DNA of 64,000 nt from Sphyrna mokarran. Its lineage: Eukaryota. Location of the stretch: NCBI GenBank assembly GCA_024679065.1, contig JAGIQG010000009.1, positions 92,132,001-92,196,000 of the forward strand, in the 5' to 3' direction. Positions 5,980 through 59,966 of the stretch are shown piece by piece. The number at the start of each line of letters is the position of its first letter. Positions within the stretch are counted from its first letter, which is position 1. Below the pieces are notes generated by a model that saw only the letters and a program-made list of their open reading frames with translations, made no database searches and was not told the origin of the DNA. A program made the translations under genes and the position numbers.

Positions 5980-6046
5980 ATGGCAGGTGAAGTGCAAGGA
6001 GTGTTTCTGTCGCTTGCGCTGTGTTTCTATCGGGTTCAAACAGTTG
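5980..6046 (+). CDS. MHC class I exon 1 (signal peptide) MAGEVQGVFLSLALCFYRVQTV/G
   Basis: ATG at 5980, hydrophobic core VFLSLALCF, consensus donor G|GTAAGT at 6047 (phase 1). Joins to GG TCT CAT to give the canonical mature N-terminus GSH. Lies in a CpG-rich stretch just downstream of X2/Y boxes. Confidence 0.85.
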
Positions 6047-12000: not shown

Positions 12001-15000
12001 GGATGCAGCTGAGCCATTGCAGCACATTTCTGTGGTTCTGGATTCACATGTAGACCTGACCAAGTAAATGACATTAGTGTATGAGTTGGGTTTTTTTCCC
12101 TGACAATCAACAACAGTTTCATGGTCATCAGTAAATTCTTAAATACAGAATTTTTTGAATTCAAATTCCACCATCTGCCATGACGGGATTCAAACCTGGG
12201 TCCCACAAACATTAGTTGAGTTTTTGGATTAATAGTCCAGTGATAATATCACTAGGCCATGTTCCTAACAGACACTCAATGTTCGGTTTTCAGAGATCAA
12301 GCTGGGAGAGTTCTAAATTCTGTCTTGGCATACACAGAAGCATAGAAAATAAATGAGACACTCCAACTAAATGCATGGATGAGGGATTGGTGTAGGGCAG
12401 AAGGCTTCATATTTATTGATCATTGGGAAGTCTTCAGGAGGGAGGGTCACCTATTCACGAGGGATAGGGAGCAGTTGACTGGGAGGGGAACACATATTTT
12501 AGCTGGGAGGTTAGCTGGAGTGTTTCAGAAATGTTTAAACTAATAGGGAGGGAGGGTGGGGAGACAGCGGGAACTGGGAGTGGGATAGAGAGGGATGATA
12601 GGGTAACACCAGAAGGTAGAAAGGAATATCCAAGAGCTGAGGGTCTTCAGTGCATGTGTTTTAATGCGAGGAGTGTGACTGGCAAAACAGATGAACTGAA
12701 GGCAATAATGTTCACGAGGAGTTTAGACGTGGTGGCGGTGACCGAGACGTGGTTGAAGGAGGGGCAAGACTGGCAATTGAATATTCCAGGGTATAAGTGT
12801 TTTAGGTGTGACAGAGTTGGTGTGAAGAGAGGCGGGGGAGTGGCTTTATTAGTTAAGGACAACATCATAGCAGTGCAGAGGGAGAGAGGTATGGATGATT
12901 TAGGAATTGAGTCTCTATGGGTGGAGTTGAGGAATAGGAAGGGAGTGGTTACTCTGTTGGGTGTTTACTACAGACCGCCCAACAGCCCGCAGGCTGCGGA
13001 AGAAGGGATATGCAGGGACATTTTAGATAAGTGTAGGAAAAATAGGGTGGTAGTGGTGGGAGATTTCAATTTTCCTGGAGTAGATTGGAGTGTGCCCAGG
13101 GCTGTAGGAGTGGATGGGGAGGAATTTGTACAGTGTGTTTTGGAAGGGTCCTTGGAGCAGTATGTGGATGGCCCGACTAGAGAGGGGGCTATACTGGATT
13201 TGGTTCTGGGGAATGAGCCAGGCCAGGTGGTTGACGTCGAGGTAGGAGAGCAGGTGTCAAATAGTGATCACAACTCTGTCTGCTTTAGGATATTAATGGA
13301 AAAGGACGAGACTGGCCCAAAAGGGAGGGTATTTAACTGGGGGAGGGCTAGATACGGCCAGATTAGGCAAGATCTTAAAGATACGGACTGGGATAAGCTT
13401 TTTGAGGGCAGGTCGACGAGGTACATGTGGGAGTCTTTCAAGGGAAAACTAAACTCTCTGCAGGAAAGATATGTGCCGGCAAGGAGGAAGGATGGGAAAG
13501 GTAGGATTAGAGAACCTTGGCTTACCAGGGAGATTGAGGACTTGATCAAGAAAAAGAGAGAGGCTTACATTAGATCTAGGCAACTAGGGACTGAGATAGC
13601 GCTGGAAGCTTATAGAGATTGTAGACGGGATCTTAAAAGGGGTATTAGAAAGGCAAAAAGGGGCCACGAGGTGGCTCTGGCAGGTAGGATTAAGGAAAAT
13701 CCAAAGGCATTTTACACCTATGTAAGGAGCAAAAGGATGGTTAGAGGCAAGATTGGACCTCTTAGGGACAGAGGAGGGGATCTATGCTTAGAGCCTGAGG
13801 GAATGGGGGAGATCCTGAATGAATACTTTGCGTCGGTATTCACGCAGGAGACTGGACAGATGTCTGTGCCTGATGTTGACAAAGTTGAGGATTGGTTGAG
13901 GGAAATAAGGATTACGAGGAAAGAGGTGTTGGGGCTGTTAGGCAGCTTAAAGACATATAAAGCTCCGGGGCCTGATGGCATTTACCCCAGGCTGCTAAGG
14001 GAGTTGAGGGAAGACTTGGCTGGGCCTCTGACGCAAATCTTTGTCTCTTCCTTGGACACAGGTGAGGTCCCAGAGGACTGGAGGATAGCAAACGTAGTAC
14101 CGTTTTTTAAAAAAGGTCAGAGGGATCACCCAGGGAACTATAGGCCGGTGAGCTTGACTTCAGTTATAGGTAAGCTAATGGAGAGGATCCTTAGGGACAG
14201 GATGTATGAGCATCTGGAGCGCTGCGATCTGATCAGGGATACGCAGCATGGCTTCGTCAAGGGGAAGTCTTGTCTTACAAATCTAGTGGAATTTTTTGAA
14301 GAAGTGACAAAAACAGTTGATGAAGGACAGGCTGTTGATGTCGTCTACATGGATTTCAGTAAGGCGTTTGACAAGGTTCCTCATGGTAGACTGATAGAGA
14401 AGGTGAAGGCGCATGGGATACAGGGCCGGGTATGTAGATGGGTCGAGAACTGGCTCGGGAGGAGGAGACAGAGGGTAGTAGTGGAAGGCTCTTTTTCCGA
14501 CTGGAAGCCTGTCACTAGTGGAGTGCCACAAGGCTCAGTACTAGGTCCTCTTCTATTTGTGGTCTACATAAACGACTTGGAAGTAGGGGTAGGTGGTGAG
14601 ATCAGCAAATTTGCTGATGACACCAAGATGCTTGGATTGGCGGGTACAGAAGAGCAGTGTCAGGCAATACAACAGGACATAGACAGGTTGGTAGATTGGG
14701 CAGATAGATGGCAAATGGAATTTAATCCGGAAAAATGCGAGGTGATGCATTTTGGCCGGAAAAATGTAGAAGAGAATTATAGGATAAAAGGTAAAACTAT
14801 ACGGAGCATAGAGACGCAGAGAGACTTGGGGGTGCAGGTTCACAAGTCTCTGAAGGTGTCCTCACAGGTGGAGAAGGTGACAAAGAAGGCGTATAGTATG
14901 TTAGCTTTCATAGAAAAGGGTATAGAATATAAGAGTAGGAGTTTGATGTTGCAGTTGTATACAACTTTGGTTAGGCCTCACTTGGAATACTGCGCCCAGT

Positions 15001-18000
15001 TCTGGTCTCCGTACTATCGGAAGGATGTGGAGTCCTTGGAGAGAGTGCAGAGGAGGTTTACCAGGATGCTGCCTGGTATGGAAGGACTGTCCTATGAGGA
15101 ACGATTAGATAGACTGGGGTTGTTTTCCCTTGAAAGACGTCGGCTTAGAGGGGATCTCATAGAGGTGTATAAGATTATAAGGGGTATAGATAGAGTAAAT
15201 GGAGGTAAACTTTTTCCACCTTTAGAAATGGATAGGACGAGAGGTCATGGCCATAGGGTGAGGGGGGCTATGTATAGGACGAATATTAGAGGGCAGTTTT
15301 TCACACAAAGGGTAGTGGGGGTGTGGAATGCACTGCCGAGTAAGGTGGTGGGAGCAGGCACGCTGGGGCTGTTTAAGGGTCTCTTGGACAGCCACATGAG
15401 CGGTATGCAGATAGAGGGATATATTAGGACTGTTTAACTACGGCTTTTTTCCACAGGTAATTCGGTCCATAATTTGAGCACGCATTCGGCAGGTGGTGCG
15501 GGTACAGCTCTTGGATGTTGATTCATGGGTTGCCTGGTACCTCATGTCGTATATGAGTGCTTTATGTGGACCATCTGAAGGGCACCATGACAGCTCAGAG
15601 ACTATCGATGTGGCTGTGCAGACACTTGGAATTGGGCCGGTGTCTGCGGGAGTTTGCGCGTTCTCCCCGTGGTTGCGTGGGTTTTCTCCGGGCACTCCGG
15701 TTTCCTCCCACAACCCAAAAATTCGCTCTTAGGCTGATTGGGTAACAAATTGTCCCTATGGTGAAAATTTTCCATATTAGGAAATGATAAATAAATGCTT
15801 AATAAAAAAAAAATAGGAGCAGGAGTGGGGCAATCAGCCCATCTAGCATGCTCTGCTTTCTGTTATGATCATCCAACTCAATATCCTCCACAAATGGAGA
15901 CATAGAATTATGGATTAAACACCACTCCTCACACCTCGTAACACATATATATTCAAAGTTGGTCACAAGCTATTTGTGAACAAGGAAGTGGCTTAATTAA
16001 GTGTGTAATCATATACCATTTTCCTTTATGGAATACTTTATTTCAGGTAACAAAGGGACAATGCTGGCAATTTACATTAAATAAATGGATTGTGGAAAGT
16101 ACACACAGACAGCCAGTGATACTGAGAAATTGAAAACAAACTGGCCTTTTCTCTCCTTGTTATCTACAGTTTTGCACTTTAGCTGAGATCTTGACTCTGA
16201 TTGGCACTCCCTCCATTCTCACCACCTGAAATTTTAAAACTTTCCCCCTCTACAGATATTGCCAGAACTTCTGAGCCTTTCCAGCATTTTGCTGTTTAGA
16301 TTTCTGCTTTGTTGCTTACTGCTGTAATGCCCGTCCCATTTAATTTACAAAAAAACTAATGATTTTGTCTTCATATCAAAGGATAAGTTTCCTTCTTAAA
16401 GGTGTACATCTCGGGCACTTTGAAGGAGATTGCATCTATTTATGATGCTTTCAGTATAGCTTCAAGACATTGAACACTAACAGGCTAATCGTATGTACAA
16501 TGAATGATTAAGTTTTACCTTTGTTTATTCATGAAAGAAGTGGGCTTATATCAACATTGCAATGAAGTTACTGTGAAAATCCTCTAATCGCCATACTCTG
16601 GCACTTGTTCAGGTATGATGTGGAGATGCCAGCATTGGACTGGAGTAAACACAGTAAGAAGTCTGACAACACCAGTTTAAATCCAACCGATTTATTTGAT
16701 AGTGAACTCACAAGCTTTTGAGCTTTCCCTCATCATCAGGTGACTGGAGAGTTCTCACCTCAGACAGAGCATATAACAGCACAAACAGTTTACAGATTAC
16801 TGATTAGAATACAAGTCTTTACACCTGACCTGCTATTCAAGTCTTAAAATGGCTAACAATGTGAGTGGAAGGAGCAGTGAGCACAGGTTAAAAAGATGTG
16901 TATTGTCTCCAGACAGTACAGTAAATGAGTTTTGATAGTAAGACATGCGGGATCATTGACATGGATAACATCATCACATATGAGAATACCATCCACCAGG
17001 AACATGGCACATACTCTTGCAACTTGGCCAACATTGTCTGCCTAATATGTTGCAAGAAAGAATGTCCCGAAGCATAGTACATTGGGGTGACCGTGCAGAC
17101 ACTATGACAATGAATGAATGAAAATTGCTCGACAATCACCAGGCAAGACTGTTCACTTCCTGTTGGCGAAAACTTCAGTGCTCACAGGCATTTGGCCTCC
17201 GACCTTCGGGTAAGCATTCTCCAAGGCGGCTTTCATGACACACGACAGCGCAGAGTTGCTGAGCAGAGACTGATAGCCAAGTTCCACACACGTGAGGATG
17301 TTCTCAACAGAGATCTTGGGTTCATTTCGCACTATCGGTAACCCCCATGACTTGCCTGGGTTTGCAAAACCTCACTGACTGTTCTGTCTGGAGACAATAC
17401 ACATCTCTCTAACCTGGGCTTAATGCTCCTTCCACACACATTGTTAGCCACTTTAAGACTTGAATAGCAGGTCAGATGTAAAGATTCGCATTCTAACCAG
17501 TAATCTGTAAACAGTCTGTGCTGTTATATACTCTGTCTGAGGTCAGTACTCTCCAGTCACCTGACGAAGAGGGAAACCTCGAAAACTTGTGAGTTTACTA
17601 TCAAATAAATCGGTTGGGCTAAACCTGGTGTTGTCAGACTTAGGTATACTGAGGGAGAATTTAGCACGACCAGTTGTCCCAACCAAGGCACCTTTCAGAC
17701 TATGGGAGGAAAATCCACACAGGTAAGGGAAAACGTGCAGACTCCCCACAGATGGTGACCCAACCAGGAATTAAACCCAGGCTCTTGGACTGTGAGGCAA
17801 CTATATAACTAACCACTATACTACTGTGCAACTGCATGTTAAGATATGCTTCTGCTGGGGCAGAAAGTGGACTGAGCTCATTCTCGTATTAAAGCAGAGA
17901 ATGAGCTCAGAAATCTATTAATAGATTTCTGATTAACAGTAACTTAAAGAGTTGGTGAGATGCTAGATGTCTAAGGAATTGAAGTTTCCGATCTAGCTAT

Positions 18001-21000
18001 GATCATATTAAGTGTTGGAGCAAGGTTGATGGGCAGAATGGCCTCCTCTTGTTCCATGTTGCTGACAAGTGTTCACATACACAGTAAATTTGACCATGGT
18101 TTCGGGTTTTTAAATGCAGCTTTCCAATAGTGGCTCACAAACGTTCTGATTCCTCAAAGAGGCAGTGCACTTTGCAATATGGCTACATTTTCACACAACA
18201 CTAGCTCAGCTTCAGGTGTCCAGCCTGTTCGGATGAACTGTCAATATCCAAAAATGGGACTTCAGCCTAACCACAGGAGAGACTCATTCCCTCCTCCCCC
18301 CCATCCCCTTCCTTTTGTAGACCCTGCCTTATGATTAATCATTGGAATGCACACTCCAAGTAACTTAATTGTTTGTTTCTTCAGTGAAAAATGAGAGGAA
18401 TTTCCCCGATCCTGAATCACATCCAAATTGCAGATTAGCAAATCCGGAGGAAAGAACACCACGGGGGTTGGGGGGAGAGAGTGTCTATTGAGATCAAATA
18501 CAATGACCGACAAGAGATGAAAGACAGTCTATCTGTCAGATGGAGACAATTTTTGATTTGACTTGACTTATGATGTATGGTACACAGTGAAAAATAATTA
18601 GAGATAACCAAAAGTAATTACAGACAACCCAGGAATGTCACTGAGGAGAGAGGTAGGGTGAGGCTTGATTGATGGAAAGAGGCGATAAAAACTGTAAGTT
18701 AGAGAGACAGAAAAAGGAGCAAGAACAGTGAAAGTCATAGTGAAAGAGAAAACAGAAAAGAAAAATGTAGATAGAGAATGAAACACAAGATGAAGCTATA
18801 TGAAACTTTTCTTTAGGCAGCATTTGGAGTATTACGTGCAGTTCTGATCACCAAACTGTCAGAAGGAAGAAGACTGTTTGGAGAGAGTGCAAAGAAAGTT
18901 CACCAGAGGTCTCGAGGTTATTGGCTCTGACAAGAGGTTGAATAAGCTAAGATTATTTTCACTAGAAATACAAAGGCTTAGTGGTCGTCTGACAGAGGTC
19001 TACAAAATTATGAGAAGCATAGGCAGGATGGATAGTCAAAGGCTTTTTCCAAAGGTAGAGTTGTCAATTCCGAGGAGGCACAGGTTCAAGGTGAGAGAGG
19101 CAAAGTGTAAGGGTGATTTTTTCTCAGAATGGTGGGTGCCTGTAACGTGCTGTCAGAGAAGGTGGTGAAAGCAGGCATATTTAAGAGGCATCTAGGTGGA
19201 TACATGAATTGGGAGGAAATATAGCATACAAACTGATCAATGGACTTCCTTAAGTTTAGGTTTTTTAAACTTAGGCAGGGCGTCATGGTGGAAACAGGCT
19301 TGGAGGGCTGAAAGGCTTTTTCATGTGCTGTAATTTTCTTTATTCTTTGTTTTGTTCTTTCAAGAAAGGGCTAGATCAGGATAGAGAAAGAACAATACAG
19401 AGCAGTAAGAGGAATAGTTTACTTTGGCCTGTTAGGGATGTGGGATTCGTTGGTTAGGTCAGTACTTATCGCCCATCCCTAGTTGCCCTTGAGATAGTGG
19501 TGGTGAGCTGCCTTCTTGAACCACCACAGTCATAGTCATATAGGTGCACCCCAGTGCTATTTGGGATGGATCCCAGAATTTTGACTCAGTAACGGTAGAA
19601 ACAGCAATACATTTCCAAGTGAAGATGGTGAATGATTTTGAGGCGGACATCCAGTTGGCAATGTTCCAACATTTCTGCTGTCTAGATGGTAGAGTCATGG
19701 ATTTAGAAGGTACTGTTGAAGGAGCCTTGGTCAGTTGCTGCAGTAAATCTTTTATATGGTGTACAATGCATTGGTGTTGGAGGATGTGAATGTTTAAGCT
19801 TGCAGTCATGGCTTTTTCAGAACGGCGTTGCACTTGAGTGTTGTTGGAGCTGCACTCATCAAGGCAAGTGGAGAGTATTCTGTTGCTCTCCTGATTTGTG
19901 CCTTGTACAATGGTGGAATGGTTTTTGAAAGCCAGGAGTTGAGTTACTCATCACAGGATTCCTAGCCTCTGATCTGTTCCGGTAGCATCCCACATTCTCA
20001 CAATACATGATATGAACAAGTTATTCCTCAATTGAAATTGAACTGATCTCGTTTCAAATTCTGCATTTATGAAAATCTATTTCATTTAGCTTGAGGACAT
20101 AATTTGCTCTGTAAGGAAATGCAAAAAAAAAGTCTCTTTCAAGGAAAGATTATACTGGTGCTAAGTTCTCTGAGTGCAAGTTCAACAACTAAAACAGGCC
20201 AATCAGCATCATCACATGGATCCTGCTTGACAAAGCAGTCTAATGGCTGACAAAACTACATCATAAAGTAATTCACTAAATTTATGACTGTTCAAAGTTC
20301 TGTTTACAATTGGCATTTACTGTGTCACTTTACAGTTCATTTCCAAGGTACCCTGTTTTATGATTTTTGAGCATAACCTACAGCTAGAAAACTGAAATCC
20401 ATATGTGTAGGGCACAGGCAATCCTCCATATTCCATTGATCTCTAATTCAAATAAATGTAACAATAGTCACTGCTCACTCCATGCCTAAATTATGTTCTC
20501 ACATTAAATAGCCATTCCTCAAAACATTACAGAGTGAGTACATTGCAGGATTGAAACTGACAAAATTCCTATTCTTTTCCAGGGGTTCTCGTGGAGGTAC
20601 CATTGCCCACTCTCTGAAGGATGCAATGCATTGGGTGCAATGTTGTGACATTAGGCTGCTTAGAGACCGTGTTCAGGATATATGTCCCTCTGCAACAATT
20701 GTTTCTTTATTCTGCTGTTAACATGGAATTTGAACCAATGCTTTGTGATATTAATGCTATTGTTGCCACTCTGATTGCCTTTTATTCTATCAGATTTTTA
20801 TTAATTTGTTGACCAATATGATGGGAAGCCATGTTCCTGTCACAATGAGCACAGCAGATTATTGAAGGGGAAGAGAGCCATGTTCCATGAAAGATTAATT
20901 AATTCTAACATGTTGTGGTTCAGGTCAGAAACTCAGAAGTGTTTTATGGAGCCTAGTCATAAGTTTTGCATTTTGAATTTGGTCAGGATAAGCATTACAG

Positions 21001-24000
21001 GTTTCACTTCAGGTATGATTCAAATGACCCATTTATCAAACAAAGTTTATTTCGGAATATTGTTATCATGCACGGAAGGAAAATTAGCAATAGCTTTAAT
21101 CAATTACAAACAAAAACAAAACACCCACAATAATGTATAACCCTCAAAAAATAGGTCTAAGATGTTCCAATGAAAACCAATCCCATAAACGTCCCTTTAA
21201 ACAGATTCAACACAACAAAGACTAATGCTTATGTAATACTGGAATTGTGTCCTTTGGGTGAATTCTGCAGTTCTCTTGACAAACTCAGAATAGTTTGAAG
21301 TCAGAATAACTTCCCAAAACATCAGAGAGAGCAGGTAGTCAAGCCACCAATGTACAATCTTTCCTTCAGGAAGAAAAGATGCATTTCTTTCAGCCAGGGA
21401 GATGGAGAGCCTTTTTTCAGCTTTGTGCTGCTTCTGAAACTAAACACTGCTGTTCAAGACTTAAAAAAGAAAGAGCTACTGTTGCCTGACCTGCAAACAC
21501 ATTTTCCTCTAACAATGCAGGGTCAGAAAACTAATTCCATAGTAAAAATTAATAACCCCATTAAGCCACTTAAGGAGCAATAAAAGGATCTCTCCAGCCA
21601 ACTTGGCATTAATGACATCAGCTGAGAGCAACAGAGAATATGATTAAAAAAACTCTTAAAGGTACACTAACATCACAGACACAAAGCACAGGAATTTAGG
21701 CTAACAACAAGGAAAATCCTTAGCCCATCAGTATCCAGTGGTCCCAGAGGCCTTGGCCCAATTGGGCTTTTTGATTTTTTCAGTTACTTTAAAACTTTGC
21801 TCCTTTGAACCTGTGTTTGCTGGTCACATGGTGGCTATCAGCTTTGCGGTCCTCCTTGGAGACCCTTCAAGGAGATCCAGTTTGGGAACTCCTGCTCAAT
21901 GCTTTGTAATTGTGGGGCAATGCCATAGTAAGTTGACAGAAACTTCCCGTTGCTGAGTGATTAAGTTAAAAGTTGAGTAGATCGATTAGATGATTGAAGT
22001 AATTTATTCAAATCATCTTTATCTTGAAAACAAAAATCAACTTGGAAGTGGATAGAATTTGCTCATTTTGCCATCACCACATTGATGTAAATCGTGAGCA
22101 AAGACATTTTCCTGTTTAAAGTATTTGGGATTGGCCTATCATTTCAAACTCTTTCCCAACTTGTTCCATGAGCTGATGTTCTTAATGTTTGATTTGTCAA
22201 TGAGAATGTTCTCTCTTTTAAAATTTGTCCTAGGGTCTCATTCTCTGCTCTATCAGTACATCCTGAACCATGGGTTTTCGCATCTCCCACAGTGTAGTTT
22301 TATAGGGTTTTTGGATGGCTGCGAGACAGATTATTATGACAACACTCTCAGCATAGCCATTCCAAGGCAAAAATGGTTGGCAGAAGCATTTGACAAGAAT
22401 TTCTGGAAAGAGTTCACCGTAACTATAAAAAGTTTCCACGGAATCATCAAGGAACAGTTTGACACTTGGTTGCAGGAGAACAACCAAACAGCAAGTAAGT
22501 TAATCAATTTTAGGTCAATGGAGGGACTAATGGGCATTTTTATTAACTTTGGGGTTTAGTGAGTCACCCATTATACTACTGGCCTGAATTCCAGTGCGGT
22601 TGATATTCCCACATTCTCGTTTGCTTCTCACGGAATCGCAGAATGGTTATCGTACAGAAGATGGTCCTTTGACCTATCATCTCTGCAATGGATCTCCAAT
22701 TGAGTAACTCATCTCATACCAATGCCCCCGAAATACTTCTCTCCAGAACCCTGCACTTGCTTCCTTTTCAAGATAGTAGTTTCATTCCTCTTTGAATGCT
22801 TCAAGTGAATCCACCTTCACCATACTCTCAGACAGAACATTGCAACACCTAATAACTCACTCCGCAAAAGTATTTCTCCTTGCTTCTTTTATTAATTACA
22901 CTAAATCTGTGTCCTTTCTTTTTGTATCCTTCCATCAGTGAGAAGAGCTTCTCCCTATCTATTCTGTCCAGACCTCTTGTGATTTGGAATTTTCTCTCAA
23001 ACATTTTCCCAGAACAAACTGTTCAAACTTATCCAATTTATCTTCATAATTGAACCTCCTCATCCCTTGAAATATTTTTGTAATACTTTCTGCACCATCT
23101 CAAATGTACTCGAAGTTGGAAGCTGAGGCCAAACTGGTTACATCAGCAAATTTAGGGTAACATCCGATATAATATCCTCCCATCATTAAAACCCAAGGTA
23201 CCATCTGCTTTATTTACTGCTCCTGTGATGGATGGCACAGTGGCACAATAGTTAGTACTGCTGCCTTACAGTGCCAGGGACCCTACTTTGATTCCCAGCT
23301 TTAGTGATTTTCTGTGTATAGTTTTCATGTTCTCCCAGTGTGGGTTTCTTGTGGGTGCTCTGGCTTCCTCCCATGCTTCAAAGTTGTGTGGGTTAATCTT
23401 GATTGACTGTGTTCAATTGACTCTTGAGTGTCAGGGGTATTATCATAGTAAATCCATGGGGTAAAAGCAAAATACTATGGAACCTGAAACCAAAACAGAA
23501 AATGCTGCAAAATCTCAGCAGGTTTGACAGCAACTGTGGAGAGAGAATAGAGCCAATGTTTTGAGTCTGAATGACCCTTCATCAGAACTATTGTCTTTTT
23601 TCAGAACAGTTCTGAGAAAAGGCCATCTAGACATGAAAAGTTGACTCTATTCTCTTTCTACAGAAGCTATCAGAATTACGAAGATTTTTCAGACTTTTCT
23701 AAATACATGGTGTTATGGGGATAGCAGCTGGGTTGTTGTCAGTGTAGCTTCAATGGGCTGAATGGCCTCTGCACTGCACTCCATCTGCACTGTAGGGTAT
23801 ACCATGAATTTAAGAAACCTGCCACTTTCATTACTAAACACCCAGGTCATTCTGATTTTAGTTTACATTGATTTAGTAATGTAATAAGTAAACTTACATT
23901 AACACTGCAATGAAGATACTGTGTAAGTTCCCAAGTTGTCATGCTCTGGCACCTGCCCAGGCATACTGAGGGAGAATTCACCATGGCCACTTCATTTAAC

Positions 24001-27000
24001 CAGGATGACTTTCAGATTGGAGGAGGAAAGTGAAGCACCAGCAGGAAACCCACACAGACATGGGCAGACTCTATATACCAAGCTGGAATTTGAACCCACC
24101 CCCTGGCACTGTGGGCAGCATTGCTAACATAGTACCACTGTGCACTTCTGCACTCCCATTGGAGTGAATCCTTTATCTTACAATGTTTCTCCGTAGTTTT
24201 CCTCTGAAGATGGATCACTTCACACTTATCCCCATTTGTGCTCATCTTTATTTGAATCCTATTCTAGGTAAACTGGACCTGGGGACGGTGTTGTCTTGCG
24301 TAAGACTTTGTGTACCTATTACAGCTTTAGTAACCATCGAAAGACAATGCACATTGAGTGGAAGAGAAATTCTCACATTTGGTGTGAATAAATGCAATAA
24401 ATATTTAAGCATCCATCGACTGAATTGCCGTTTCAGGTATCCATTATATACAAGGACTGTTTGGCTGTGAGGTGAATGGTAGCAAAGCGAGTGGCGGGAT
24501 TTTGAAGCTTGCTTTCGATGGGAGATATGCTTTCAGCTTTGATATAAACACCTTGGTTTGGACTGTGCACGATCCAGTTGCTAAGGAATTAAAAGTGAAG
24601 TGGGATAAAGAGGAAACCATGAACCGTTACTTCAAGAGCCTAATAATAAATGATTGTGTGGCGTTGTGGCAGTTATACTATGCTGTGGGAAACACATTTC
24701 TCAGCAGAAAAGGTAAGTTGAGAACAGCACCATGGTCAGTTACAAGCTGGCTTTTGGAATACAATAGTTGAGGCAATGATTACAAAAACTCATTTGTAAT
24801 GAATGAAGTCATGTTTGAGCTATATAGAACTTTGGTGAGGATGCCACAAGAGTACTGTGTTAGTTCTGGACAGTACATTACAGGAAGGATGTGCTTGCAC
24901 TGGAGGGCATGCAGACGAGATTCACAAGGATGCTGCCTGGGATGGAACATTTAGGTTGTGAAGAGAGGCTGGATAGGCTTGGGTTGTTTTGGGTTATTGG
25001 AGCAGAGAAACTGAGCTGTGACCTGATTGAGGTGTACAAGATTATGAGTGGCTAAGGAGCAGCTATTCTCCTTAGCTGAACAGTAATTCATGAGAGGACA
25101 CAACTTCAAGATGAGGGATAGAAGATTTAATGGGAAGGTGAGGCCAGGGGGTTGTGAGAGTCTGGAATGTACTGCCTGGGAGATTGGGAAAGGTGAGTTT
25201 CTGTACATCCTTTAGAAAATATCTGGATGAGCACATGACATGGTGCAACATTCAAGGCTATGGACCAAGTTATGGTAAATGGGACTAGATGGGAGGTCAG
25301 GTGCTTCACATGAATCAATGCACATTTGATGGGCTGATGTGGCCTCTTCTGCACCCTGTGATTCTATGATTCAATTTCATTGGATCCGTTGGAGACATTC
25401 TCTGTGTTCTTTTAACAGATGGCTGATTCGATGTTGCCTATTTCACATTGGAAGCAAAAAGCTAAGCTTCCCGCTTGATTTCCTAGTGCAATGTTCGGTT
25501 TGCACGTTACTTGAAATTAATTCTCAGTCTCTCATCCAGTTATTCCGCAGGTTTCAGTCACTGCCAGGGAAGGGCCTGGTTGGTTCCTACAATGCGCTGT
25601 GCGTGGATTTCACCCGCAGTCCATTAATGTGACTTGGCTGAAGAATGGATCACAAGTCCCTGAGACCAAATCTACCGGCTTGCTGCCCAATGAAGATGGA
25701 ACCTACCAACTGACTACAACTCTCCAGTTTGACCCGTACGATGGGAAGCAGTATGGCTGTCACATTGAACACATCAGCTTGCCGGATGGGAAGACTGTTC
25801 TTTGGGGTGAGGACATATTTCCTGACATTGTAGTCCAGCATGTGCGGACCCAACCGTTTTCTTTTCGATAAATCACATTATTTCTTTGTCATACAAGCTT
25901 TATCATCAAATAGACAAATCAGGGAGCTGTCCAGTCCCCCAAAATTTTATTGCTTAACGATTTGATGGGGGGGTGGTGGAAGAAACATCGAGTTAGGTAT
26001 GTTCGAGAGCTGAGTTCCTTCTTGGGCAAGATAGTTCTGCAGATTTCATAGGCAGCATAGACTTCACCCTTCATAGTGAGGCCCATGGTTAGCCTGTGGA
26101 ACACTGCACACACCACATGTATTGGTATCCTACTGTCTGCCTCGGACATCTTTTGGTTCTTGGGAACATTATTCTCCACTGTCTGCAATTGGCTGTGAAA
26201 GTAGCTGAAAGGCCCTGCACTCCAAGCCACAATGCTTTGAATCATACTATAGCATTGACCGTCTCATAAGATCATAAGATACAGGAACAGAATTAGGCTG
26301 TTCGGCACATCCCATCTGCTCTGCCTTTCAATCCATGGCTAATAGAGTATTCAATCCCATTCTCTTGCCTTTTGCCTGTAACTTTCATCCTCTCACCATT
26401 TATCTCCATCCCAAATACACTCATTGACAAGTTGCTCATTTTGCTGCATTTTACACACTTCCAGCTTTGTTTCCACCTGTCTGCTTATCAGCTAACTTCA
26501 AAACTGCTGAGAGCTGTCAAGACTTCAAAGTTTCTGCCCAAATTTGTGAACATTTGTTAATACAGATTCATAGAATAGAATCATAGAATTCTATATTGCA
26601 GGAAGTGGCTATTTGATCCAATGAGCCTGCACTGGAAACAATCCCACCCAATCCTTATCCCTGTAACCCCAATATTTACCACGTTAAACCCACTGGCAGT
26701 AAGGGGCAACCCTGGCACTGTGAAGCAGCAGTACCAACCATTGTGTCACTGTGCCGCCGATTGGCAGTGAGCAGGTCACACCTAATGTTATATCATAGCA
26801 CATGGGGATGTTTAGCATGATGTTGAGTGTAAGTTCAGTATTGAACAAAAACAAAGACTGAGCACCCTCCTACATATATTCTTCCCTCTCTTTGTCTTCC
26901 ATGATGTTACTGGGTAACTCATAGTGTGTATGGGGTGTCAGGAAGTGCTATTACCTTTGGTGGGGGAACATGTTGCGTCCTTTCATGGATATTTGTCCAT

Positions 27001-30000
27001 CCTGTGTCCCCACTTGGTGCTCAGCTCTTCCTAGGGCTCGCCATTGCTGTTTGCATGCAACAATGGCCACACCCCTGGCAACAATCTTTATCAAGCCTTC
27101 TGAACCAGGTGAAGGTAGCCAACGGGTCTCAACCCTCAGTGAGATAGGGAGATAGCTATCTCAGCATGTGAAGACAGAGTCCAGCAGATTGAGTGGAAGA
27201 GATCAATGGAAGGTCAAACGGTCAAGAAGGTGGTCTCTGCAAGTGTTGTGGAATATGAAGAGCAGGACAAGACACAAAGGACATCTTGGTCATCCACTGC
27301 ACCTAGTCCCACCTCCAACAGTCTTGACTCTTATCTTGCCACTGGATCTAGATGGAAATTGGCAAGAGAGAGTGAGGGTGGCACTGTGTAATTCTCCCTC
27401 AGTTTAATCCAAATCAAGTGCTAGTTTCAACACCATCATCATCATCATCAATGTCCTGTTCAACCCTCGAAGCACTGTGGCAATGGGTGAACAATGAAGC
27501 AGCAGGTGTGGATACACTGGGAGCTGTAGTCATGGACCTGCACACAGGCGGCTCAGGTCTAATGGTCGTTTTCCGCTGATCTATCTGGACGACTGAGCAG
27601 CCCTCTTCAGGAACACAATCCTCACCTCTGTAGAATGAGGAAGCAGCTAGAAAAGGTGCCCTAAAAATTGCCTTCTTCACTACACCCTGGCCAGTTTACC
27701 GCAGCTGGCAGTGATCCCATCTTGTAGTCAAAATAAAACAGAAGATGACACCGGTCAGTATTGGCACTTGGAAAGTGTGCACGCTTTTGGGCAACCCTAC
27801 AGCAGGCAGACCAGAGAGAAGAACAGCCTTAGTTGCCAGAGAGCCTGCAAGATACAACATCGACACTGCAGTCCTGAGCGAAACTCGTCTTGTCAACATA
27901 GGTCAGTTGACAAGACTGGAGCGATTGTAGCAACGATGAGCATCGTGACGCTGGAGTTGGATCCGCCACCAGGAGTCACCTGGTTGATAGTCTAGCCAAG
28001 GCTCATGACATTACAGCTTCCACTGCAGAACAGAAGTCAAGCCACTTTGATCAGCGTCTATGCCCCCACAATGAACAACCCAAACGAGATGAAAGACAAG
28101 CTCTACAAAGAACTAGATGCCCTACTATCAGCAGTAAGCAGTACCGACAAGCTGATCTTGCTTGGCGATTTCAATGCAAGAGTATGGTGTGACTCTGCAA
28201 TCTGGCAGGGAATCATTGGGAGACATGGAGTGAGCAAGTGTAATAGTAACAGTCTACTCTTAATGAAGACCTGTGCAGCACATGACTTCCTCACGACCGA
28301 CACAATCTTCCGTCTGCCTACCCATAACAAGACCTCCTGGATACACCTCCACTCTAAGCATTGGCATCTTATCGACTGTGTCATTGTCAGGAGAAAAGAC
28401 AGGCGGGATGTCAGAGTAACCAAGGCCATGTGTGGTGCTGATTGCTGCATAGATCGCAGGCTCATTGCTCCAAAATGAGACTCTGCATCAGACCCAAGAA
28501 GCAATCGCAAGGGTGCAAGATTATGTCAAGAATCAATGCGGCCAAGCTAAAGAACCCCAGTATAGCTTCAGCACTGGCTGAAGACTTAGAAATCAAGCTT
28601 GCTGACCTATACTTTACAGGCAGCACTGAAGACGACTGGGAATGCTTCATGGATGCTATCCATACATCTGTGCTGAAGATGCTCGGGCCCTCCATCCACA
28701 AGCAGCATGACTGGTTTGATGAGAATGATGAGAATATACAGACTCTACTTGTTGAAAAGCACCGTCTTCATCAGGCTTGTCAGAACAACCCATCTTCAGC
28801 TGCCAAGAAAAATGCTTTTACCAGTGCTCACAGGACAGTCCAGAGTAAACTGCATAAAATGCAGGATGTCTGGCTGAGCACCAAGGCAGATGAAAGACAG
28901 GGATACACTGACAGAAATGACTTCAATGACTTCAAATAGTTCTATGAAGCCCTGAACACTCTCTATGGACCTCAATCTCTTGGGAGTTCCTCCCTTCTGA
29001 GTAGAGATGGTACAATTCTCATTACAGAGAAGGCTGAGATCCTGCAGAATTGGGCTGAACATTTTGAAGCTGTCTTCAACCAAACGTCATCTATTAATGA
29101 TGAGGCAACAGACAGTATTCCCCAGGTTGATATCAACAGTGTCATTGATGACCCACCAGTAGTAGCCGAAGTCATGAAAGCTGTCAGCCAGCTATCCAGT
29201 GGCAAAGCCCCAAGGGCAGATGCCATACCCGCAGAAATCTATAAAGCTGCTGATCCTGCACTTATTGAGAAGCTCACCGAGTTGTTCCAGTCCTTTTGGA
29301 ATCAAGGATCCATTCCTCAGGAACTTAATGATGCTTCCATCATATAACTCTACAAAAGGAAGGGCAATCAGCAAGTATGTGAGACCCACCGAGGAATCTC
29401 ACTACTCTCTATCAGAGGAAAAACCCTCACAAGAGTCCTGTTAAATCATCCAGTCACTCACCTGGAGCTGGGCCTTCTGCCAGAGTCACAGTGTGGCTTC
29501 TGCAAAGGTCGTGGGACCGCTGACATGATTTTTGCTGTGCGCCAATGTCAGGAGAAGTATCATAGAACATAGAACATCTCAGCGCAGAACAGGCCCTTTG
29601 GCCTTCGATGTTGCGCCGACCAATTATGAAAAAAGTAATGACCCCCCAAACTAAACTATTCCCTTCTCTTCCATAAACTTATCAACTAACCTCTTAAACG
29701 CCACCAAACTTGGCGCATCTACAACTGCCGCAGGCGGTATCAGGAGCAGAATCACGAACTCTACACAACCTTTGTTGATCTCATGAAAGCCTTTGACACT
29801 GTCAGCCGACAAAGCCTATGGCGGATCATATCAAAGTTTGGCTGCCCCCCCCGCCCCCCAAATTCATTCAAATGAATGAATTTTATGATGGCATGCCAGT
29901 TCCATAATGGCACGATGGCCAGAGTACTGGATGGCAGAGAATCCTCTGAGGCATTCCCAGTCACCGATGACATCAAACAGAGTTGTGTGCTCGCACCCAC

Positions 30001-33000
30001 ATTGTTCAGCATGATGATTACTGCTATGTTGAATGATGCCTTCCAGGACGTGTTGCTGGAATCAGTCTCAAGTACAGAGTGGATGGGAAGCCCATCACGT
30101 CCATGCTGGTCAACAAAGAACTCACTGCACTACACCCATTTTCCAGCACTTGGCCCAACGCCATTATGGTAGCAAAAGTGAATTTCGAATAACTTGTTAA
30201 ATGTTAGTAGAGTTTCTGACCTAACTGCCCTTTAAGGCAATGAGTTCCTGATTGCCAGCTTTCTCTGTATTTCTCCTCAACTCCCCTCTTCTATTTCTTA
30301 CCTTAAATCCATTCTACTTCTTACCTTACCTCTTTGTTATTGACCCTTCTCCTAATGGAAAAGATACCTCCCTACCTGCCATATCTATGTCCATCATAAT
30401 GTTATATCTCTTTCTGGTTCACTCTGAATCTTCACTGTACTAAGGAAAACAGCACCAGCCTATTCAATCTTTCCTCACAGATCAGACCCTTCAGGCCAGA
30501 CAGCACCCTGGTGAATCTTCTCTGTACCCTCTCCAGTGCAATCACATCCTTCCTATAATGTATCACTTACTCATTCCTATTTTCTCTCTCTGACTTGCTT
30601 ACTCTTTTGCCAGTCGTTTCTTTTCCCTCCTTCCTCTCCTCACAAATCCCAGTTTTTATTCATTGCTCTCAAATTTGGGTCAACAGATGCAGTGGACAAA
30701 AATACTCAATCTCTTGAAGTATTGCACAACAAACCTCATATTACTTTACCATGTTACCACAGAAGTATCAAACTGTAATACAAAACTTTAGCATGCCGGG
30801 CACCTAACTTCATTAGATGCAAATTATTCGACCTCTGCCTTTACTTCATTATGTACAAAAATATCTAGACTCTGACTTACTTGTTAATTTTAAAATAACT
30901 AACTTCTGACCAACTTCATTCTTTACAAAGTATTCAAAGGGTATGAAAACTTAACAAAATATCCAAACTCATGACTTGGACTTAGAAATCCTACGTGAAG
31001 TGAGGCCAACGGATTGGATTCCCCTACTGATGGGCTTTGTTCTGATGTCCCTGAGTCCCAAACTTGGTGTCTTGCTGCTTGTTCAGCAGCGGTTGATCCC
31101 AGGTTGCTGTTGCCAATGTCTCTGAATTTCTTCTTCTCATATAGATGTTGCTGCCACAGACCATTCTTCCAGTAACATATTCACACTAATCAATCACTGT
31201 GTTGTTGGTCATAAGTGCTCAAGTGTTATGCCTCTATCACAGATTATGATTCTCTCAGGAATACAACACACAGGGGCCTATGTTCAATCACTGCCTGTTC
31301 CACACACAACAGCCACAGTCCAATCAATTCCTGTATTTATTCCATAGATGTACACCCTACTCTGCTACTTTCACAGTATTTAGCCTCATATAAAGTTAGC
31401 TCTTTTAACCAGTAGGTTTCACTGATGTTTTCAGTTTGCCTTTATGAATACCCATCAGGCTATATACTCTTCCTCCATGTCCTACCTTTTAAGTACAATA
31501 ATATATGATGAACAAAGTGGATACTATTGACATTAAACCCTCTAACATCATATAACATGAACAGTGTTAGAGGTGTAATATAGGATTGTCTATTTGCATA
31601 GAAAATCATATTTAATAAATTCTTCTTTCAATATATTTCAGAAAGAAAGATGAGGGAAGACAAACACATAGGATTGATTATCGCAGCAGTGGTGGTGATG
31701 CTGGCAGTAATACTGGTAGTCATTGTTCTTGTATATAAAAAATGGAAAAAGCAAAGAGGTAAGGCATGGACAATAATAACAAACAAATTTTGCAAATCAT
31801 CTTTTCTCAGCCAGAAGTGTAATTAAATTTTGAGCTAAAATATCAGTTATGGCGGGGTCAATTATCCCATGGCTTAAATTGCCTAAAAACTGCATTTTCT
31901 TTGAGGAATTAATTCCCAATGGAGGAAGTAATGATAAGCTTACATCTAATCTCAATACTGCCTCTGTTAGAGCACTGTGTGCACTGTTCAGCTTCCCATT
32001 GTAAGGTCTCATTCAGCATTAGGAAAGGTACAGGCCAGATTCATCAAGATGCTGCCTACCTAAGGTGTGCACTGTCTTGAGTAGTGGGTGTCCCAATAAT
32101 GAAGGCTATCCAGACTCTTTAAGCTATTAAGACAAGAATGATACAACTTGAGAGAACAATTCTGCCAATATTTACAGGAATAGTTCCAGCCATGAGAAAT
32201 TTCAGGTAGGAGGATAGTTTGGAGAGGATGGAAATGTTTTCCTTGGAGATGAGAAGGCAAAAAGCAAATATTCAAAACTATCAAATAATAGAATCACAGA
32301 AAGGATGTAGCACATAAGGGGGTCTTTCAATCCATCTGGTCTACAGTGACCCAAAAGACAGGTGTCCTTTCTAATCCCATCTTCATGCAGGAGGAGCGTG
32401 TTTAGAATAGAAAGGGCAAAACTGATTCCATTCCTATCAGGATCAAAACTTAATATAATTTAGAGTGATAGTGATAGAGTCATAGAGGTTTGCAGCACTG
32501 AAACAGGTCCCTCAGTCCAACTTGCCCATGCTGCCCTTTTTATTAACTCCTAAGCTAGTTCCAACTGCTCATGTTTGCCCATATCCCTCTGTACCCATCT
32601 TACCCATGTGACTGTCTGAACGCTTTTTAAAAGACAAAGTTTTACCCACTTCTACTAGTATCTCTGGCGGCTTGTTCCAGACACTTACCATTCTCTGTGA
32701 AAAAATTGCTGCTCTGGACCCTTTCATCTCACCTTAAAACTATGACCTCTCACCTTAAATCTATGACCTCTAGTTTTAGACTCCCTCCTTTTGGAAAAAG
32801 ATATTGACTATTTACTTGAAATATACCCCTCATTATTTGATAGATCTCTGTAAGATCACTCCTAAGCCTCCTATGCTCCAGAGAAAAAATGATCCAGTCA
32901 ATCCAACCTCTCCTTATAATTCAAACTATCAAGTCCCAGTAGCAACCTAGTAAATCTTTCCTGCACTCTTTCTAGTTAAATAATATCCTTTCCATAATAG

Positions 33001-39000: not shown

Positions 39001-39866
39001 GTGTCTGAGCCCAACCACATTCTCTATTGAAATCTATTGGCGGGATAGCAGCCAAATGGGTGGGCGCTTCCAGAACTAGGGGCCATAGCTTGAGGTTAAG
39101 GGATAAACCCTTTTTAGAACTGAAGTGAGAAGACATTTCTTCACCCAGAAGGTGGTGAATATGTGAAATTCACTACCACAGAATATAGTGAGATCAAAAC
39201 ATTGTCTGATTTCAAGAAGTTAGATATAGTTCTAGGATCGAAACGAATCATGAGATGTGGAAGGGTTGACGGGGTCAAGGGTTGGGGAGAGGGAGATCAG
39301 GATATTGAATTTGATGATCCACTATGATCAAGACTAATGGCCAAGTAGGCTTGAAGGACCAAATGGCATAGTCCTACTTCTAGTTCCTATGTTTTTATTT
39401 GCAAATTGCACTTTGCATGGAGACACAAGTGTTCCAAATGATGATTGACATTGAGTTTGATGGCACGGATAATGGAATTGGGAAGAGCATGGTTTCTGGT
39501 AGTGGTGGGAAGAATTATGATCAACATTGCTGAGTACCAGCTTGTTCACAAGTATGCTTCCACCTCAGGGTGTTAGCTGACAGAGTCTTCACAGGCATTA
39601 TGATCATCTACGTTTCAGTTATCCCCATTTGGTACGATCTTAGACATATCCTCACAGAAGAATGTGCTAAACTGATCATGCTTGATTGAATTGACTAAAA
39701 GATTGGGAAGTAACCATTTTGGTAATCACAGTTGACTAAAAAGCTAGTTCACTGAATCATCATAAAATGGAAATAGACATGACTGTATTCATTACACTGC
39801 TCCGTGCAATCACCCTTATATTGTCTAACACTTATTTTTCATTTTCTAGAGTACCATGGTGTCTAA
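5980..39866 (+). CDS. Non-classical MHC class I heavy chain, 6 coding exons: join(5980..6046,22234..22494,24437..24712,25540..25806,31642..31758,39850..39866), 334 aa
   Basis: All five introns are GT-AG and phase 1, as in MHC class I genes. Exon lengths 67+261+276+267+117+17 = 1005 nt give an uninterrupted frame: leader, alpha1 (GSHSL..NQT), alpha2 (C101-C164 pair), alpha3 (C1-set Ig), TM and short tail. The lineage cannot be assigned without a search. The last exon is the least certain. Confidence 0.9.
7590..7905 (+). mobile_element. HE1-like V-SINE
   Basis: tRNA-like head (agtgattagcaatgctgcct…gggttcagttc), V core and CR1-like tail. Confidence 0.75.
7905..8435 (-). mobile_element. CR1 3' fragment
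   Basis: Minus ORF HSLRIQDRPFRMDIRRNFLTQR..LCNSLP. Confidence 0.75.
9730..11370. mobile_element. Cluster of degraded CR1 3' fragments (mixed orientation)
   Basis: [19 protein letters not shown]-type remnants on both strands. Confidence 0.7.
12352..12543 (+). pseudogene. C-terminal fragment of CR1 ORF1p (SGNH esterase-like)
   Basis: NETLQLNAWMRDWCRAEGFIFIDHWEVFRREGHLFTRDREQLTGRGTHILAGRLAGVFQKCLN* aligns with the ORF1 at 43172-43714 ([20 protein letters not shown]…[15 protein letters not shown]). Confidence 0.85.
12531..15437 (+). CDS. CR1 ORF2p: APE endonuclease + reverse transcriptase (968 aa)
   Basis: Uninterrupted ORF. APE motifs NARS, VTETW, GDFN, SDH. RT motifs [25 protein letters not shown]. 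Confidence 0.95.
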   Translation: MFKLIGREGGETAGTGSGIERDDRVTPEGRKEYPRAEGLQCMCFNARSVTGKTDELKAIMFTRSLDVVAVTETWLKEGQDWQLNIPGYKCFRCDRVGVKRGGGVALLVKDNIIAVQRERGMDDLGIESLWVELRNRKGVVTLLGVYYRPPNSPQAAEEGICRDILDKCRKNRVVVVGDFNFPGVDWSVPRAVGVDGEEFVQCVLEGSLEQYVDGPTREGAILDLVLGNEPGQVVDVEVGEQVSNSDHNSVCFRILMEKDETGPKGRVFNWGRARYGQIRQDLKDTDWDKLFEGRSTRYMWESFKGKLNSLQERYVPARRKDGKGRIREPWLTREIEDLIKKKREAYIRSRQLGTEIALEAYRDCRRDLKRGIRKAKRGHEVALAGRIKENPKAFYTYVRSKRMVRGKIGPLRDRGGDLCLEPEGMGEILNEYFASVFTQETGQMSVPDVDKVEDWLREIRITRKEVLGLLGSLKTYKAPGPDGIYPRLLRELREDLAGPLTQIFVSSLDTGEVPEDWRIANVVPFFKKGQRDHPGNYRPVSLTSVIGKLMERILRDRMYEHLERCDLIRDTQHGFVKGKSCLTNLVEFFEEVTKTVDEGQAVDVVYMDFSKAFDKVPHGRLIEKVKAHGIQGRVCRWVENWLGRRRQRVVVEGSFSDWKPVTSGVPQGSVLGPLLFVVYINDLEVGVGGEISKFADDTKMLGLAGTEEQCQAIQQDIDRLVDWADRWQMEFNPEKCEVMHFGRKNVEENYRIKGKTIRSIETQRDLGVQVHKSLKVSSQVEKVTKKAYSMLAFIEKGIEYKSRSLMLQLYTTLVRPHLEYCAQFWSPYYRKDVESLERVQRRFTRMLPGMEGLSYEERLDRLGLFSLERRRLRGDLIEVYKIIRGIDRVNGGKLFPPLEMDRTRGHGHRVRGAMYRTNIRGQFFTQRVVGVWNALPSKVVGAGTLGLFKGLLDSHMSGMQIEGYIRTV
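16617..17641 (+). mobile_element. Penelope-like element remnant (GIY-YIG end) with inverted pseudo-LTRs, TSD AGGTAT
   Basis: Arms 16659-16934 and 17365-17641 are reverse complements. The interior encodes a degenerate GIY-YIG C-terminus (…YIG.T.QTL…RRVAEQRLIAKFHT…LNRDLGF). AGGTAT at 16611-16616 and 17642-17647 splits a minus-strand SINE. Confidence 0.85.
17557..17592 (+). ncRNA. Minimal hammerhead-ribozyme-like motif in Penelope pLTR
   Basis: TCAC-CTGACGA-A-GAGG(GAAA)CCTC-GAAA-ACTT-GTGA: core boxes CUGANGA and GAAA, stem II hairpin, stem I TCAC/GTGA. Confidence 0.55.
18760..19360 (+). mobile_element. CR1 3' fragment
   Basis: ERVQRKFTR…LFSLE..RL.G.LTEVYKIM and a CR1 tail. Confidence 0.75.
22234..22494 (+). 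CDS. MHC class I exon 2 (alpha1 domain)
   Basis: Acceptor tttgtcctag|GG, donor A|GTAAGT. Translation GSHSLLYQYILNHGFSHLPQCSFIGFLDGCETDYYDNTLSIAIPRQKWLAEAFDKNFWKEFTVTIKSFHGIIKEQFDTWLQENNQTA contains the class I hallmarks GSHSL, G26/D29, PR..W51, W60 and the N86 sequon. Confidence 0.95.
23232..23800 (+). mobile_element. HE1-like V-SINE split by a palindromic insertion (23463-23700)
   Basis: tRNA head ggcacagtggcacaatagttagtactgctgcc and V core; the SINE resumes at 23701. Confidence 0.7.
23463..23700. mobile_element. Short palindromic non-autonomous element (probably Penelope-derived) with 13-bp TSD
   Basis: The two halves are imperfect reverse complements. Flanks aaatccatggggt (23450-23462) and aaatacatggtgt (23701-23713). 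Related half-copies occur near 6400-6510, 16240-16310 and 55860-55985. Confidence 0.6.
24437..24712 (+). CDS. MHC class I exon 3 (alpha2 domain)
   Basis: Acceptor gtttcag|GT, donor G|GTAAGT. Translation SIHYIQGLFGCEVNGSKASGGILKLAFDGRYAFSFDINTLVWTVHDPVAKELKVKWDKEETMNRYFKSLIINDCVALWQLYYAVGNTFLSRK shows H93, Q96, GC101, DG, W133, KW147, C164 and Y171. Confidence 0.95.
24800..25370 (+). mobile_element. Degraded CR1 3' fragment in MHC intron 3
   Basis: ORF2-end remnants and tail gatgggctga…cctcttctgcaccctgtgattctatgatt. Confidence 0.7.
25540..25806 (+). CDS. MHC class I exon 4 (alpha3, C1-set Ig domain)
   Basis: Acceptor ctcatccag|TT, donor G|GTGAGG. Translation VIPQVSVTAREGPGWFLQCAVRGFHPQSINVTWLKNGSQVPETKSTGLLPNEDGTYQLTTTLQFDPYDGKQYGCHIEHISLPDGKTVLW contains C..GFHP..I.VTW, LPNEDGTYQ and Y.C.IEH.SL motifs. 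Confidence 0.95.
27600..30090 (+). mobile_element. RTE-clade LINE (BovB-like), degenerate APE + RT
   Basis: Motifs RPERRTALVARE.ARYNID..VLSETRL, ISVYAPT, LGDFNAR, HWHLID, CGADC..D.RL, HDWFDEND, FVDL.KAFDTV, KQ.CVLAPTLF. Multiple stops and frameshifts. Confidence 0.88.
29563..29736 (-). mobile_element. Short CR1 3' end inserted into the RTE element, TSD GTATCA
   Basis: (tagaaca)n tail in reverse. GTATCA at 29557-29562 and 29737-29742; removing the insert restores RTE RQCQEKYQEQNHELYTTFVDL. Confidence 0.85.
31642..31758 (+). CDS. MHC class I exon 5 (connecting peptide/transmembrane)
   Basis: Acceptor atatttcag|AA, donor G|GTAAGG. Translation ERKMREDKHIGLIIAAVVVMLAVILVVIVLVYKKWKKQR has a 22-residue hydrophobic helix followed by a basic stop-transfer cluster. 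Confidence 0.92.
32470..34175 (-). mobile_element. Degraded CR1 LINE (RT region to 3' end)
   Basis: Minus ORFs [42 protein letters not shown]. Confidence 0.85.
34940..35630 (-). mobile_element. CR1 3' fragment
   Basis: Minus ORF EYCVQFWS…[13 protein letters not shown]. Confidence 0.8.
36576..39305 (+). repeat. Local direct duplication of about 470 bp (36576-37045 and 38830-39305)
   Basis: Both copies read aggta.agtgagtgg..gatgaaaatcc…gaaatgggaaaaaaaagtgtctgtccaactctgtttccattaacacaag…ggga.atcaggatat. Confidence 0.9.
37925..38235 (+). mobile_element. Full-length HE1-like V-SINE
   Basis: Head ggcacagtggt..acactgctgcctcacagtgccagggac..aggttc, V core, tail gctcgatgggccgaatagcctcct…gattctatgatt. 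Confidence 0.85.
39850..39866 (+). CDS. MHC class I terminal coding exon (cytoplasmic tail EYHGV*)
   Basis: Strong acceptor: branch point CTAAC (39825-39829), long pyrimidine tract, TTCTAG|. In phase 1 it reads (G)AG TAC CAT GGT GTC TAA. It is followed by non-repetitive AT-rich 3' UTR-like DNA with ATTAAA at 40126-40131. Confidence 0.7.
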
Positions 39867-58159: not shown

Positions 58160-59966
58160 AAAGAACAAAACAGCACGGGAAACAGGCCCTTCGGCCCAAC
58201 GAGCCTGCACCGCCACTCCGATGTTCCCACCTCTACCTGCGATCCCTGTCCATGTTTATAGATCTATGGATTAAATACCAAATTTGAGACAATTTAGGGA
58301 GAATTTGTTTTGCCAATTAGCCTAAGAGCACATCTTTGGGATGTGGGAGGAAACCGGACCATCTGGAGAAAACCCACACAAGCACAGGGAGAATGCGCAA
58401 ACTCCCACAGACACAGGCCCAAATCCACGTATCTGCACAGCACAGCGCAGCGATAGTCACTAAGCTGTCGTGTTGCCCATCAAATGGTCCAGGTCAAGCA
58501 TACACTAACGACGTGAAGCAGTAGGATATTCTCAAAAAAAATCCAAGAGCAGCCCTCTCACGACTCATCGCGTGTATGCCCCTTGTTAGACAAGGTGAAC
58601 CAAAGCACCTGTAGGATAAAAACAACTATATCAATATCATCATCTATTTACATACTTCCCAGGGACTCCCAAGGCTCATGATCCCTATTTTAAATCAGTT
58701 TTCTATACCCCTCCATTCCCATTCTGTTCACGTGCCCATCTAAGTATTTCTTAAATAACTCCAGAGTACCTGCCTCCACCACTTTACTTGGCAGCGCATT
58801 CCATACCCCCACCACCCTCTGTGTGAAAAAACTCCCTCTAGAATCCAAATTATACCTTACCCCCCTCAACCTAAGCCCGTGACCCCTCGTGCTATTCGAG
58901 TCCATCCTAGGAAAAAGCTTAACCCTGTTTATCTATACCTCTCATAATCTTGTACACCTCTATTAGATCTCCTCTAAGTCTACGTCTTTCTAAGGAAAAC
59001 AGTCCCAATTTGCCTAACCTCTCCTCATAACTCAGACCTTCCATACCAGGCAGCATCCTGGTAAACCTCCTCTGCACTCTCTCCAGAGTCTCCACGTCCT
59101 TCCGGTAGTAGGGCGACCAGAATTGGACGCAGTATTCCAAATGAGGTCTAACCAATGTTTTATACAACTGCAACATTAAAGGCCAGCTCTTGTACTCTAT
59201 ACCCCTTCCTATAAAGGCTAACATACTATATGCTTTCTTCACAACCTTCTCCACTTGCTCTGCCACCTTCAGAGACTTGTTCACCTGTACCCCCAGGTCC
59301 CTCTGCGTTTCTATACTCTTAATAGGTCTACCCTTTATCATATACCTCCCCCCTACATTCTTTCTCCCAAAATGCATCACCTCACATTTATCAGGATTGA
59401 ATTCCATCTGCCACCTGTCTGCCCAAGCTAACAGCCTATCTATGTCCTGCTGCATCGCCTGACAATGCTCCTCACTATCTGCAAGTCCAGCCATCTTTGT
59501 ATCGTCTGCAAACTTGCTGATCACTGCACTTACTCCCTCTTCCAAGTCATTTATCTATATTACGAATAGAAGAGGTCCCAGTACCGAGCCCTGCGGCATA
59601 CCACTGGTGACTGACCTCCAGCTAGATAAACACTCTTCTACTATTACCCTCTGTCTCCTTTTACCAAGCCAGTTACTTATCCATCTAGCTACCTGTCCTT
59701 GTATCCCATTAGCCTTGACCTTGTCAACTAACCTCCCATGAGGGACTTTGTCAAACGTCTTACTAAAATCCATATAGATGACATCAGCGGCTCGCCCTTC
59801 ATCCACCGTTTTCGTCACCTCCTCAAAAAATTCTACCAGATTTGTAAGGTACGACCTTCCCTTAACAAATCCATGCTGCGTATCCCTAATCAGATCACAA
59901 CGCTCTAAGTGCCTGTACATCCTGTCACTAAGAATCCCTTCCAACAGCTTCCCTACCACTGATGTC
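58160..59966 (-). mobile_element. Young 5'-truncated CR1 (RT to 3' end) with SINE-containing 3' UTR
   Basis: Minus ORFs 59555-60001, 58919-59545 and 58690-58905 are closely related to ORF2 12531-15437 (ERCDLIRDTQHGF, FADDTKM.GL). The 3' UTR matches 3829-4369. Confidence 0.9.

Follow-up and report, generated by a model that had tools for sequence, protein, structure and literature searches.

What does the MHC class I molecule encoded at this Sphyrna mokarran locus present? The original prediction, made on the letters of the 64-kb window (the whole stretch of DNA analysed here), was that its groove binds a non-peptide, probably lipid, ligand. It is still debated whether lipid presentation goes back as far as the jawed vertebrates; the current evidence consists of the shark class I molecules UGA and UFA. 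Judged by its sequence matches, the gene is the S. mokarran orthologue of UGA, an identity that the original prediction did not give. UGA already has a name as a lineage of nonclassical MHC class I genes, presumably low in copy number, in sharks and rays. I put at about 0.8 the probability that this orthologue carries lipid in its apolar groove, recycles through endosomes by a YxxΦ tail and works in the manner of CD1.

The class I gene is intact. Its six exons span 5980-39866 on the forward strand and encode 334 amino acids, and the spliced frame has a stop codon just once, at its end. The phase-1 exons encode a leader, alpha1, alpha2, an Ig-C1 alpha3, a transmembrane segment and a tail, which are the parts expected of a class I heavy chain. 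The leader (signal peptide) exon lies at 5980..6046 (+), with the ATG at 5980, a GT donor in phase 1 and 78% identity over 27 amino acids to the N-terminus of a Mustelus relative. The alpha1 exon (22234..22494, +) and the alpha2 exon (24437..24712, +) are both open and flanked by AG and GT; the ends originally proposed for the groove-forming region, 22234 and 24712, are exact boundaries of these two exons. The Pfam MHC_I model matches alpha2 with E 3.7e-10 and alpha1 with E 0.004, which alone is under the curated cut-off, while the alpha3 exon (25540..25806, +) matches the C1-set model with E 4.5e-19. The exon for the connecting peptide, transmembrane segment and proximal tail (31642..31758, +; AG/GT; 59% identity over 39 amino acids to the Mustelus relative) was found, like the leader exon, through the proteins of relatives. 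The last coding exon, E-YHGV-stop at 39850..39866 (+) with a pyrimidine-rich acceptor, is predicted. It is one of 17 candidate acceptors from a motif-directed scan and was chosen because it alone gives the length and form of tail of the shark relatives. No tRNA or Rfam RNA was found within the 64-kb window.

To which class I lineage does the gene belong? The best PDB match of all three domains is 9CH4, entitled "Crystal structure of shark nonclassical MHC CLASS I, UGA" and released on 2026-03-18 (E 4.4e-33, 2.1e-34 and 5.1e-39 for alpha1, alpha2 and alpha3). The runners-up have E 4.8e-9, 5.7e-12 and 2.1e-28, so that in each domain the E-value of 9CH4 leads by 10 to 24 orders of magnitude. On this gap UFA, UDA, UBA, UCA and UAA were rejected as the lineage. 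UEA gave no match in the available part of the PMC10751288 supplement, and the lineage comparison was thus made without it. By my own count, identity to 9CH4 is 51/85, 55/90 and 63/87 (60, 61 and 72%), or 169/262 (about 64%) over alpha1 to alpha3. The alpha1 and alpha2 domains of 9CH4_A have the same reading as the Gcirratum_UGA rows in that part of the supplement. A broad profile search returned 4147 matches at E 0.001. In fold searches, the entries that follow 9CH4 tie with one another at rmsd 6-15 A, and their order was disregarded.

From two homolog searches came 18 named proteins of sharks and rays. One of them, a read-through isoform from a skate, repeats another entry and was dropped, which leaves 17. 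In a tree of the window's protein and these 17 relatives, built without an outgroup, other lineages, CD1 or nurse shark UGA, the S. mokarran sequence is sister to Mustelus (100/98; 79% identity), followed by Scyliorhinus (96/89) and Cetorhinus (100/99), with the rays apart. Seven of the 15 inner branches are starred, and the supported forks agree with the expected species groupings. By this placement, a carcharhiniform shark would be the most likely source of the sequence. The window holds one intact copy, and no second one was found within its 64 kb; the databases list 3 entries for Pristis and 3 for Pristiophorus, which are entries and not checked loci. The predicted protein has four N-glycan sequons, N86 among them, and two canonical disulphide pairs, including C101-C164. 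It also has two extra cysteines in alpha1 (22236-22493, +): C31 is present in 15 of the 17 relatives, while C22 occurs in this copy only, nurse shark UGA having Y22. A cysteine at position 63 is present in four relatives and in nurse shark UGA.

The predicted tail is short and ends in YHGV, a YxxΦ motif, as is expected of a CD1 tail. Nine of the 17 relatives have a YxxΦ tail; the other eight are database models lacking the motif, several of them alternative isoforms or read-through models. In the accessible text of PMC5002281, the tails of CD1b, c and d end in YQNI, YQDI and YQGV. Since YHGV resembles these, endosomal recycling with lipid exchange would be expected by analogy. A lipid ligand, as originally predicted, also agrees with a 2025 review, according to which crystal and mass-spectrometry data suggest that UGA and UFA bind CD1d-like lipids (personal communication, data not shown), and the UGA structure has been solved as 9CH4. 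A primary UGA/UFA paper was not found by a search that left most subscription journals outside, which is not evidence that the work is unpublished. The background sources beside the review were PMC10751288, PMC5002281, PMC9586880 and PMC8236899.

Does the groove itself fit such a ligand? Nine residues anchor the peptide termini in class I molecules: Y7, Y59, R/Y84, Y123, T143, K146, W147, Y159 and Y171. The available part of PMC8236899 gives anchor roles for most of these positions. The alignment of the S. mokarran protein with nurse shark UGA is free of gaps, which allows the numbers to be transferred; HLA-A2 numbering was read by eye off the published rows (Gcirratum_UGA beside HLA-A2, in the part of the PMC10751288 supplement at hand) and applied by script. 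Under this numbering, all 28 distinct residue assignments of the original prediction hold. Only 4 of the 9 anchors (Y7, K146, W147 and Y171) are kept, which speaks against a classical class Ia molecule (UAA). Across the lineage, the claim that the peptide anchors have been lost is borne out for Y123, T143, Y159 and W167, absent in 17/17 relatives, but not for Y59, which 16/17 relatives keep. Since Y59F is confined to this copy, the UGA lineage retains more anchors than the predicted list of losses implies. The retained Y7, K146, W147, Y171 and, usually, Y59 may be structural or may bind a head group.

The same retained residues would suit a UGA orthologue whose ligands are lipopeptides or short acyl chains held singly, in the way of chicken YF1, where the Tyr, Lys and Trp residues would grip a polar or peptidic head. 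With E about 1e-9, YF1 chains stand fairly high among the alpha2 matches listed, and PDB titles show YF1 entries with N-myristoylated ligands. However, the review likens UGA ligands to those of CD1d, and the peptide-terminus holders Y159, T143 and Y123 are missing in all 18 sequences. I regard this reading as unlikely. A CD1-like lipid presenter fits the conservation of the lineage: L5, Y9, F99, L114, W133, W147, F156 and L159 are invariant in 17/17 named relatives, and these eight residues, together with the general absence of Y123, T143, Y159 and W167, are in keeping with a groove that has been conserved to hold something other than peptide. Of the two small residues that, by the original prediction, could open a deep pocket, G97 is found in 16/17 relatives and is common to the human CD1 row and the FcRn row, while A123 is found in 10/17 only, the crystallised UGA of nurse shark having Ile there. 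Structure predictions made with the Mustelus relative as a stand-in had a mean pLDDT of 56.6 (7 sequences) or 62.9 (15), with alpha1 mostly below 50, and their platform is unreliable.

It was also claimed that the groove is lined with hydrophobic residues, and this is correct. Of the 19 positions listed for it, 17 are apolar, the other two are Y9 and G97, and none is charged. The 17 relatives have 14-17 apolar residues at the same positions. Hand counts of five classical rows gave 13 for nurse shark UAA, 11 for HLA-A2, 10 for chicken BF2, 10 for elephant shark UAA and 9 for ray UAA, and those of nonclassical rows gave 13 for chicken CD1, 12 for human CD1 and 16 for nurse shark UGA. The 19-position list is selective, leaving off the polar groove positions D34, T66, Q77, T80 and D163. 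In a list of 32 positions of my own choice, 21 residues of the S. mokarran protein are apolar and 4 are charged, and the relatives have 16-20 apolar ones. By either list (17/19 and 21/32), the groove is predominantly hydrophobic, as that of CD1 should be. Since one classical shark allele has 13/19 apolar positions, hydrophobicity alone is not diagnostic. Likewise, some chicken classical grooves are as hydrophobic as those of CD1 according to the accessible text of PMC5002281, so that composition by itself is no proof of a lipid ligand.

The groove could in principle be filled by its own bulky apolar residues, as in a ligand-free or non-presenting fold of the FcRn/HFE/ZAG type. Large aromatics do face it (F24, F63, F70, W81, F99 and F156), the FcRn row shares G97, and ZAG stands high among the listed alpha2 matches (E 1.6e-10). 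Such a fold is very improbable here, as the lineage is reported to bind lipids and the CD1-like tail suits a recycling presenter. At HLA-equivalent position 45, which I take to be the site of the MR1 Schiff-base lysine (A' pocket), the S. mokarran protein has Ala and 13/17 relatives have Thr; Lys is found in none of these 18 sequences, which speaks against membership of MR1. A peptide presenter with an unusually hydrophobic specificity, or an MR1-like presenter of small metabolites, might account for the four kept anchors, the conservative change Y59F and the 13/19 apolar positions of a classical nurse shark allele, but it is just as improbable, given this Ala, the lineage-wide loss of Y123, T143, Y159 and W167, and a groove conserved from rays to sharks.

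The gene is a UGA member from a new species and probably works, by analogy, like CD1. Gene structure, lineage, groove composition and tail motif are established in this analysis, and on them the following course can be proposed. The heavy chain would pair with beta2-microglobulin, and an acyl-chain lipid would enter the apolar alpha1-alpha2 groove with no need of TAP. The loaded heavy chain would then reach the cell surface, from which the C-terminal YxxΦ motif would recycle it to endosomes for lipid exchange, as in CD1b, c and d. T cells would presumably recognise the complex.

How far has this copy diverged from the rest of the lineage? At 12 of 268 positions it lacks a residue that is otherwise nearly invariant, compared with 3-8 such positions in the other shark rows and 5-20 in rays. 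With Scyliorhinus as the outgroup, the S. mokarran protein has 27 unique changes in alpha1 and alpha2 against 9 in Mustelus (p 0.004, uncorrected), while alpha3 has 1 against 2. The platform excess is weaker with three other outgroups (p 0.04, 0.07 and 0.12, uncorrected). It may come from selection or from relaxed constraint, as counts at the protein level fit both. With F59, F63 and I67, the groove is more apolar than those of most relatives. A tentative and rather doubtful idea is that the groove of carcharhiniform UGA was remodelled (Y22C, T45A, Y59F, F63 and I67), making the A/B-pocket end more apolar and shifting the lipid specificity. If true, this would be a conserved CD1-like presenter with a changed lipid specificity and, together with the conserved YxxΦ tail, would mean that endosomal recycling of lipid antigens already existed in sharks and rays.

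The surroundings of the gene were also inspected. A rhodopsin-family GPCR gene of two exons, 54287-54216 and about 42230-41322 (-), faces the class I gene tail to tail and is probably GPR139-like. In a read-through model from a skate, UGA is fused to a similar receptor with 57% identity to this GPCR, suggesting that the adjacency of UGA and GPCR is conserved. In the sawfish MHC chromosome, GPR139-like arrays flank class Ib genes, as described in the available part of PMC10751288. By analogy, the neighbour is at most suggestive of MHC linkage; no MHC marker genes were found within the 64-kb window. Intron 1 contains the decayed remains of part of an alpha3 exon (20809-20874, +; 74% over 66 nucleotides), which hint at an old local (tandem) duplication. 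The same intron has an open frame of 989 codons (12468-15434, +) that looks by eye like ORF2 of a CR1-type LINE. Similar broken LINE elements lie at 43130-45379, 51446-52707 and 58922-59554, with a further LINE-like relic near 27990-30170.

Since UGA already has a name, a crystal structure and a description as a lipid binder, the general picture is unchanged; the locus contributes one more species and, as testable details, the tail motif and the faster-changing groove. Classical shark UAA (6LUP) shares the class I fold, the exon structure, the N86 sequon and C101-C164, but keeps Y59, R84, T143, Y159 and W167, and its alpha1 match is E 4.4e-7. Shark UFA (8GM8), whose alpha1, as far as it is aligned, has the same reading as the Gcirratum_UFA row, is the second-best alpha1 match (E 4.8e-9) and is reported together with UGA as CD1-like and lipid-binding. 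In contrast to the gene studied here, UFA is a separate lineage with a far weaker match (it is not among the best 60 of 495 alpha2 PDB matches), lacks K146 and W147, and has an alpha1 helix that is shorter in the published alignment rows. Tetrapod CD1 shares the apolar groove, Gly97 (human row) and a short tail ending in YxxΦ. However, the CD1 rows lack Y7, K146, W147, Y171 and Y59, of which UGA keeps the first four and, in 16/17 relatives, also Y59; no CD1 is found among the 45 alpha1 matches or the best 60 of 495 alpha2 PDB matches. The available part of PMC10751288 describes UFA as CD1-like and CD1-UFA orthology as hard to assess. The closest system is nurse shark UGA (9CH4), which aligns without gaps in three domains and has identical residues at 13 of the 19 groove positions, including G97, F99, L114, F156, L159 and W81. 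On the other hand, S. mokarran has F59, F63, I67 and A123 where nurse shark UGA has Y59, C63, E67 and I123, and L143, L116, E84 and C22 where the latter has F143, F116, K84 and Y22. Since 6 of the 19 groove positions differ, the ligand may differ from that of the crystallised UGA.
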